Below the pieces are notes generated by a model. The model worked only from the letters and a program-made list of their open reading frames with translations. It was not told the DNA's origin and searched no databases. From assembly GCA_963704165.1 (NCBI GenBank), contig CAVPHD010000001.1, positions 637,072 to 701,071 of the forward strand: a DNA stretch of 64,000 nucleotides, given 5' to 3'. Made by a program: the position numbers and the translations under genes. This document shows positions 54,142 to 56,129 of the stretch, in pieces (the stretch's first letter is position 1; each line of letters begins with the position of its first letter). Source of the stretch: an uncultured delta proteobacterium. GTDB lineage: Bacteria > Myxococcota_A > UBA9160 > SZUA-336.

Positions 54142-56129
54142 ACTCGCGGGCCGCGCCTACACGTACAACGCCTTCGGAGAAATGACCCGCGCAACACAGA
54201 GCGGCGTAGCTCTAGCCGATCTCACCTACGACGCGAGCGGGCGGCGCACCAAGATCATCGATCGAACCCAGAACACCCCGGTCGTCCGCTTCCTGGTGAC
54301 GGACGACTTCGAGTGGGACGAGACGAGCAAGCTCGCAAAGATCCACATCTCGCTCGGCGGCTCGCTGATCGCTACGCGGCTCGAGCGGTTCGCGGCCCAG
54401 GCCGCCGCGCCGCCTGCCGCACCGATCGGGCGCGGGACCGGGTGGGGAATCGTGCTGCTTCCGGCGGGGATGGCGGGGCTGCTGCTCGGTCTGCAGCTGA
54501 TCCTCCTCCGGAAGCAGCGCGCCCCCGTGTCCCGACCCGCGCTCGCCGGCTCGACCGCGATCGTGCTGTACTTGGGTCTGGTGACGCCGGTGCTCGCACA
54601 GATCCCGGACGGCGACATGAACGAGGACGATCGGCTCGACGCCGCGGACGCGCTCATCATGACGCGAATCGTTGATGGGACCGTGCCGGAGACGAGCGCC
54701 GAGCAGGCGCGCGGGGACATCGCGCCGCTCGAGCTGGCGCCCGAGACGCCCTCGGACCTGAACGCCGGAGACCTGATCCTGCTGCTGCGCGCGATCCGGG
54801 GGGACGACGTGGACGGAGACGGCGTGCCCGCAGACCTGGAGCTTGCCGAGGGCGCGAGCCCGTTTCGCGAGGACAGCGACCGGGACGGCGTGCCCGACGA
54901 CGTCGAGATCCTCACGCTCGGCAGCGACCCCGCGCGGGTCGACACCGACGCAGACGGCTTCGAGGACGAGATCGACCCAGACCCGGTGGCCGGGGTGGTG
55001 TTCTGGTACGGCGATCACCTGGGCAGCACGACGCTGCGCACGCGCTCGGACGGCGCGCTGCTGGAGCGCGTGGTGTACCGGCCGTACGGAGAGGCGGTCG
55101 CGACCGCGGGCGGCGCGGCGGAGCCACCGGAGTTCGGCTACACGGGGCAGCGCTACGAGCGGAGCCTCGCGATCTACGACTACAACGCTCGCTGGTACGA
55201 CCCCGCGCTCGGCCGCTTCCTGCAGGCGGATCCGATCGTGCCGAGCGCGACGAGTCCGCAGTCGCTCAACCGCTACGCGTATGTGCTGAACAATCCGATC
55301 GGGCGAGTCGACCCGACGGGTAACGTCTCGGTGAGTGGGATCTTCGGCGGGATCGCGAGTGTCGCCAGATACGCGTTTTCACCTGTTCGCCACTTCGCAT
55401 CCGGGTTCGGTTCATCCTTCGCCTACAGCGCATTCGGCTTCGGCAGTGCCCCGAGCGGCTCCGGACTCGGTTTCGGAACCCGGGGCCGGCTTCGGTTCGC
55501 TAGTCGGAGCCGTTCCTGGAGTGACCGCGAATCTTCTCTCTGTTCCGCTCGGTGGGCTGGGGCGCGCCTTCGAATCACTGCCCGGTGTCACTGCAGGGGC
55601 TAGCTGGTTCTCAACAGCTGACCGAGCGCTGCGCGGGTATGGCAGCGGGGTCACGACGCGGGTGGACTCTATCAGCACGACCTATCGAAACCCGCTGTCC
55701 CTCCAGGCGAACGACATCGTCAGCGTCGGAGAAGGTCTGTTCGTGGGCAACCTAGGGGGGATCGTGAACGGTGCCATCGATGCGATTCCCGGCCTGGGCG
55801 GACCCAACGCCCAAGGAGCCGTCGATCTCGTGTCCGCGGTCGTACCCCGCTATGGCAGAACCGCGGGTCCGAACTACACTGGCGACCCACTCCACAATGC
55901 CGTGGACGTCGACTCTTCATCCCATGACCAGGAGTACGAGCGGTCATCATTCAGGGATCAGACTTAGTATGATCGCCAACTCACCCGAGATTTGACACGA
56001 AGCTTGGTGTCGGGGCCCCAACCCGGTGTCTACGGGCAGGCGTACCGACTCGCTGAGATCTCGCTGTTCTTGGTCAAGGCACCTGCTCAGGACGCCGCGT
56101 TCGGGGTTTACGATGCCCTCAACCGGTAG
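54142..56129 (+). CDS. Rhs cassette 3: longest truncated core plus PLA2-like toxin (frameshifts near 55480 and 55965)
   Basis: YTYNAFG, LTYDASGRR, TM insert, dockerin-like domain, core to DPTGN; the CT has PRYGRTAGPNY..VDVDSSSHDQEY. Confidence 0.82.

Follow-up and report, generated by a model that had tools for sequence, protein, structure and literature searches.

A predicted internal membrane hairpin, a likely second signal peptide and a predicted dockerin fold before the core of SpvB-type Rhs proteins

Orphan Rhs cassettes in the window

The window analysed here is the whole 64,000-nucleotide stretch of an uncultured delta proteobacterium (contig CAVPHD010000001.1). It contains three tandem Rhs cassettes, and a putative immunity gene lies directly 3' of each. 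The features of the array are given below; the helices TM1 and TM2 were called by Kyte–Doolittle (KD) hydropathy.

49987–51547 (+): orphan cassette 1, with TM2, dockerin, repeats, core and toxin tip (ORFs, sequence comparison)
51544–51918 (+): putative immunity gene 1, lipobox-like VTTGC (ORF)
51984–53237 (+): orphan cassette 2, with half of the dockerin, repeats, core and toxin tip (ORF, sequence comparison)
53238–53942 (+): putative immunity gene 2, a multi-pass membrane protein (ORF)
54152–54379 (+): cassette 3, last YD repeats and shell strands (Rhs-derived sequence from ~54126–54143)
54449–54505 (+): TM1, predicted stop-transfer anchor (KD 19-mer 2.25; helix 614–640 in the model of the relative P0003)
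54506–54538 (+): basic loop (RKQR..R), predicted to be cytoplasmic (net positive in 117/118 family members)
54539–54598 (+): TM2, likely internal signal peptide ending PVLA/Q, with Q at 54599 (KD 1.87)
54611–54799 (+): predicted dockerin-fold domain (AlphaFold, Foldseek; Pfam Dockerin_1 below cut-off)
54806–54982 (+): three DxDxDG (bacterial TSP3-like) repeats (residues 219, 241 and 264 of P0001; PF18884 on relatives)
54992–55321 (+): final shell strand, DHLGS and Rhs-associated core up to the DPTG autocleavage motif (TIGR03696, E 2.6e-21)
55322–56129 (+): toxin tip 3, broken up by a frame change near 55480 and a stop at 55965 (resembles the tips of P0002 and P0193)
56026–56616 (+): putative immunity gene 3, lipobox-like LLLPGC, start uncertain (ORF; no family match in Pfam or NCBIfam)

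All three cassettes are 5'-truncated orphans without the N-terminal shell, a point that the original prediction had missed, and being orphans they cannot work alone. Each begins at a different point of the insert that precedes the core: cassette 1, which is 95% identical to cassette 3, starts at ~49987, just before TM2, cassette 2 at ~51984, at the second dockerin helix, and cassette 3 at ~54126–54143. The claim that each of the three cassettes retains some of the insert therefore holds. The window shows the features of the Rhs class, namely three differing toxin tips, downstream ORFs and orphan cassettes, with the toxin and immunity roles being putative. The toxin tip of cassette 1 lies in two frames (50019–50990 and 51032–51547) and is related to P0187 and P0137, and that of cassette 2 has a weak Tlde1 match below the Pfam cut-off (E 0.01). 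The parent gene was not found in the source genome G000 (84% complete), in which two other Rhs genes are distant and carry no hairpin. The three copies of the window are probably silent recombination reserves.

Several features of the surrounding DNA were recorded as well. From 55364 to 64000, where the contig ends, the sequence repeats itself in inverted orientation (86% over 8,962 columns); the pattern is typical of a fold-back long read, and the fold-back is likely an artefact of this kind. Genes past ~59700 are degraded mirror copies. Acyl-CoA dehydrogenase-like gene fragments at 49542–49648 (matching 57244–57350, 98%) and 53944–54141 (matching 56731–56928, 86%) flank and interrupt the array, which suggests repeated insertion at or near that gene. 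An imperfect inverted repeat at 49813–49987 (73% over 181 columns) ends at the exact start of cassette 1. The gene upstream of the array (48369–48936) has an IPTL-CTERM-like tail in a shifted frame, and PEP-CTERM and IPTL-like tails are numerous in G000.

In cassette 3, all motifs of the original prediction lie in frame within the ORF 53909–55603(+), where GWGIV starts at 54440, RKQR at 54509, GDMNE at 54611, GDIAP at 54713, DHLGS at 55013 and DPTG at 55310. The insert forms one loop directly before DHLGS and consists of two hydrophobic helices with a basic loop, the PVLA/Q site, the dockerin-fold domain and three DxDxDG repeats; every element that had been claimed (TM1, basic loop, TM2 with its PVLA/Q end, dockerin-like pair and repeats) is thus present at the proposed place. 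The match of the core to TIGR03696 reached 75.9 bits (cut-off 32.5), the RHS_repeat match was weak, and the DxDxDG repeats of the window gave weak NCBIfam thrombospondin-3 matches below cut-off.

Two trivial origins of the insert were rejected. A long-read artefact is ruled out by independent short-read contigs of relatives: those of run X1 tile 54126–55347 at ~92–96% identity, gapless among the pieces listed, and most of this segment is also covered by runs X2 and X3. Chance is ruled out by the presence of the same insert in full-length relatives.

Full-length relatives and the spread of the hairpin

The full-length relatives are signal-peptide/SpvB (TcB–TcC-like) Rhs proteins of ~2,300–2,800 aa; the nearest protein, at 82% over the insert, carries the label Myxococcota, and the hosts of the relatives seen here are genome bins. 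Their domains are arranged in the order signal peptide, SpvB, FG-GAP, TcdB_midN, YD repeats, TM1, basic loop, TM2, dockerin, repeats, DHLGS, core and toxin. The N-terminus of the TcdB/TcaC pathway (signal peptide, SpvB and beta-propeller) is therefore present in the full-length relatives and absent from the truncated copies of the window. The insert occupies the turn that leads from the "RVA/IAT" strand into the "YxHxDHLGS" strand. Compared with insert-free members, in which this turn is a few residues long as in ordinary Rhs, the insert carriers have the same flanks.

For the analysis of the family, profile A3 (hairpin and core) was run against 1.84 billion representatives (50% identity) and the best 150 were analysed. 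Two hydrophobic segments before the core or DHLGS were called automatically in 118 of these 150, and homologues with the proposed architecture were thereby found. As A3 was built from hairpin sequences, 118/150 is not a prevalence, and because the members are related, the family counts do not represent independent events. Among the other 32 are proteins that are truncated, plain Rhs proteins and some hairpins that the automatic call missed. The PxxxxDPxG motif is kept in 113/118 hairpin members, whose source labels include Myxococcota, Verrucomicrobiota, Limisphaerales and Vicinamibacteria. The hairpin was also found without a dockerin at 4/63 loci that had been chosen mainly by the core pattern (L060, L069, L097 and L101 among L041–L103), and in several further genes in the window's own class. 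The hairpin is a family trait. The dockerin is an accessory, as 91 of the 118 hairpin members lack it and 27 have it. The hairpin is dispensable, because close relatives do without it: the SpvB-type Rhs genes at G000:C3 487537–494235(−) and in L132 have intact flanks and no hairpin, and their close relatives L121, L122, L144 and L145 have one.

Predicted folds, membrane segments and a candidate partner

The AlphaFold model of the window segment 54599–54988 reached a pLDDT of 93.5. Its best Foldseek match was the dockerin 2ccl_B (target TM 0.83, rmsd 1.8 Å, E 2.8e-3), and most of the top 36 ranks were dockerins. Although its Pfam score lies below cut-off, the segment is thus predicted to have a dockerin fold with a duplicated calcium loop-helix, as the original prediction had anticipated.

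The model of the relative P0003 (pTM 0.74) shows shell strands up to residue 592, helices at 614–640 and 646–662, the dockerin and repeats, and strands again from 824. It superposes on the TcdB2–TccC3 entries over 682–686 residues in the range ~1–929 (2.3–2.5 Å), which is nearly all of the ~698 non-insert residues of shell and core. From this superposition, the core is predicted to keep its place within the shell, with the insert projecting as a loop. The alignment used for this prediction held six insert-free Rhs rows and related structures exist in the PDB, so that the result is to be read as a model.

The N-terminal hydrophobic stretch expected of a Sec-exported protein was found in 32/37 full-length hairpin proteins and at the control position in 1/37. 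Export by Sec, claimed for the window protein, is thereby borne out in its relatives, and the topology would be out-in-out. TM2 has a basic n-region, a hydrophobic h-region and small residues at −3 and −1, as Sec substrates of signal peptidase I do at the motif level. An AxA motif follows TM2 in 78/118 members, as opposed to 40.4 ± 4.1 (SD; maximum 55) in 1000 within-window shuffles, and follows TM1 in 40/118 (shuffles 35.5 ± 3.9); looser motifs discriminate less well. The proposed signal peptidase I-like site after TM2 therefore stands at the level of motifs. A few members have a lipobox at the end of TM2 (P0233, P0264 and P0278; P0265 and L129 by eye), and the module of signal, dockerin and repeats also begins the secreted proteins P0008, L028, L017 and L022. 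When TM2 profiles were compared with the proteins of G000, 20 and 33 of the top 50 matches were N-termini and 2 and 2 were C-termini; TM1 profiles hit C-termini in 14/50 each, far more than the TM2 profiles did. Single matches in this partly circular test are not significant. Judged by these motifs, TM2 is likely an internal signal peptide, putatively cut by signal peptidase.

TM1 of the window lacks the preceding Cys that is invariant in MYXO-CTERM, and it matches no NCBIfam sorting family, MYXO-CTERM and IPTL-CTERM included. By a loose pattern, a Cys motif precedes TM1 in 39/91 dockerin-less members vs 0/27 members with a dockerin, and four of ten hand-picked dockerin-less relatives matched MYXO-CTERM, all below cut-off (E 0.1–9). 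TM1 may have a sorting role, which we treat as a lead, and a stop-transfer anchor is the safer reading. In P0187 and similar Verrucomicrobiota-type members, a conserved WP[FL]xxGRxPxT stands just before TM1; it has no family match and is possibly an unrecognised sorting signature.

The classical cohesin PF00963 was not found in G000 or in the carriers; 2/41 genomes have it, neither of them carrying the module. Meanwhile, a conserved unannotated lipoprotein gene of 310–350 aa adjoins the dockerin-bearing genes. Members of this family, one of which was scanned and had no Pfam match, lie at L020 3902–4828, L034 1385–2344, L040 4785–5801 and L023 6931–7854. The lipoprotein occurs in 10/41 relatives, among them every one of the 8 other genomes that have the dockerin module, and was not found in G000 (84% complete). 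Among 301 genomes of the phylum, many of which fed the profiles, 10 have both genes, 4 (including G000) the dockerin only and 1 the lipoprotein only, so that 10/14 dockerin genomes have the lipoprotein; G130, G140 and G180 did not contribute to the lipoprotein profile. At nine loci, not all of which are hairpin Rhs genes, the two genes share a contig and are separated by no more than ~7 kb: G020:C5, G014:C288, G010:C24, G027:C57, G032:C23, G032:C6, G006:C119, G130:C7 and G130:C19. As to its fold, the lipoprotein scored 0.77 for cohesin likeness in the Atlas, and its top PDB match was a cohesin (E 0.75); a deeper profile had no PDB match, and hhalign matched one cohesin at a probability of 31% and a second one not at all. 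These mixed comparisons weakly suggest that its C-terminal domain is cohesin-like. Of the proposed cohesin-like partner, a genetic candidate that is linked to the dockerin and co-occurs with it can be named, but the evidence for its fold is weak and the carriers have no classical cohesin. The predicted dockerin shares its fold, with two calcium loops and helices, with the type I dockerin–cohesin pair of cellulosomes, from which the system differs in having as its candidate partner an unannotated, weakly cohesin-like lipoprotein domain.

A probable Sec polyprotein and its alternatives

We consider it probable that cassette 3 is the orphan C-terminal cassette of a family that is made as a two-part Sec polyprotein. 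The architecture of the full-length relatives, the position of the insert and the statistics of charge and cleavage motif are observed. Judged from the sequences and models, the mechanism is likely as follows. Export would stop at TM1 and the basic loop, which would leave the shell anchored, and would resume at TM2, where a cut by signal peptidase is likely. The chain set free by this cut, made up of dockerin, repeats, last strands, core and toxin, is predicted to remain in the shell without a covalent link and to close the cocoon; the halves would thus reassemble into a tethered toxin cocoon, from which only the DPxG autocleavage would free the toxin. The dockerin may bind the neighbouring lipoprotein and so hold the cocoon in the envelope, and the type II secretion system may be the route to the surface. 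Anchor signals are normally C-terminal, and a polymorphic toxin needs that end free; by carrying a C-terminal-type anchor mid-protein, such a toxin would keep its real C-terminus free for exchange.

The same topology would result if the hairpin were an uncleaved two-helix anchor that holds an intact single-chain cocoon on the outer face of the inner membrane until it is released by another protease or by contact. In the P0003 model the two helices are long and predicted well, and a strict AxA is missing in 40/118 members, as this explanation would have it. The enrichment of AxA after TM2 and not after TM1 argues against it, the lipobox variants are hard to explain without processing, and other proteins use the same TM2–dockerin junction as their N-terminal signal; we regard an uncleaved anchor as rather unlikely. 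According to the original prediction, signal peptidase would cut the core and toxin free from the shell, which they would leave to dock on a cohesin partner as an independent unit. This is at odds with the P0003 model, in which the strands after the cleavage site and the core remain in the shell as in TcB–TcC, with the 91/118 hairpins that lack a dockerin and with the same flanks seen in insert-free relatives. In spite of the lipoprotein as a candidate partner and of short genes for a signal peptide, core and toxin (two in L057, and P0289, P0284 and L147), a departure from the shell seems very doubtful to us.

It is also conceivable that the insert is a tolerated scar of a gene fusion between the tail of a surface protein and the head of a secreted dockerin protein, having no selected role, with the dockerin and repeats as calcium-binding spacers. 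The loop does accept other inserts (L051, L063 and L076), the hairpin is lost in some relatives, and the 2/41 genomes with PF00963 are not module carriers. However, the charge pattern and the cleavage motif persist across sequences of <50% identity and in records labelled Myxococcota, Verrucomicrobiota, Limisphaerales and Vicinamibacteria, and the lipoprotein gene tracks the dockerin; we give little credence to a scar. The polyprotein remains our preferred reading. If true, it would mean that signal peptidase processes a polyprotein in bacteria, and it suggests a family of dockerin partners outside cellulosomes.

The T6SS sheath protein VipB was searched for in the carriers. It was not found in G000 (84% complete), G006, G014, G019, G027 and G032 and is present in G010 and G020; this negative result in G000 and 5/7 other carriers supports the claim of T6SS independence. 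No PAAR or VgrG Pfam domains were seen on the relatives scanned. GspD scored above cut-off in 5/5 carriers tested, and TcA (PF18276) matched 0/5 genomes in a search in which no control genome matched either. Lipoboxes on several of the downstream immunity-like genes fit a toxin that passes through the periplasm of its producer.

WapA is a Sec-exported, T6SS-independent YD-shell toxin with an immunity gene. Sec-exported Rhs toxins of the SpvB type are already known from the TcdB/TcaC pathway (Zhang et al. 2012, PMC3482391). They share with the present family the signal peptide, SpvB, integrin-like propeller, RHS repeats, variable tip, and orphan cassettes with immunity genes, and neither a TM hairpin within the protein nor a second signal peptide nor a dockerin is named in the available part of that paper. 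Bacterial teneurin-like proteins (PMC13018210) are also Sec-exported, T6SS-independent YD-shell toxins with immunity genes; in the available part of their description, signals are N-terminal only, and the shell head is FN-plug/NHL vs SpvB here. From the B–C cocoon of Tc toxins (TcdB2–TccC3, YenB/YenC2), the present family differs in that a single gene encodes the B and C parts together with a Sec signal and in that the split is predicted immediately ahead of DHLGS.

The closest parallel for a sorting signal in mid-protein is MXAN_5598, for whose internal, tripartite MYXO-CTERM processing at that position has been proposed (Guo, Haft, Wall 2025, PMC11980579). As far as the accessible text goes, that protein combines an adhesin and a beta-barrel in one fusion, whereas the window TM1 has no Cys motif or sorting-family match and, among hairpin relatives, only dockerin-less ones have a Cys before TM1, by the loose pattern above. 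The accessible text of the Haft preprint (10.1101/2023.06.07.544157) does not mention RHS. No description of an internal anchor plus second signal peptide in an Rhs core was found in the literature, with most subscription journals and supplements outside the search. The claim of an undescribed delivery architecture is thus upheld in part: none was found described, but Sec-exported, T6SS-independent Rhs toxins as such are known from the available parts of PMC3482391 and PMC13018210. The family is a real and conserved variant, apparently not described before, within a known class of toxins. Its architecture bears on the export, loading and surface retention of non-T6SS Rhs toxins in Gram-negative bacteria, and it offers a concrete way out of the conflict between a C-terminal anchor and a C-terminus that must stay free.

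More tentatively, and with less than even confidence, we suggest an undescribed and widespread route of surface display. One gene would encode two Sec substrates that would be assembled in the periplasm: a shell that ends in an internal sorting signal, and a cartridge of core and toxin that has a separate signal peptide. The anchors would be interchangeable (a sorting tag of the Cys type, a lipobox, or else a dockerin bound to a new cohesin-like lipoprotein), and stand-alone signal-core-toxin genes would load alternative cartridges without recombination.

Two kinds of rearranged genes were also observed. Short genes for a signal peptide, the last shell strand(s), core and toxin tip lie at L057 9905–11197 and 11776–13134, downstream of a hairpin-less full-length Rhs and with an immunity-like ORF after each; similar genes are P0284, P0289 and L147, and all of these may be real cartridges or truncated orphans. 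In the gene at L023 7638–10253, the remnant of a YD repeat, followed by the hairpin, dockerin and repeats, is fused to a secreted C-terminal part that is not Rhs.
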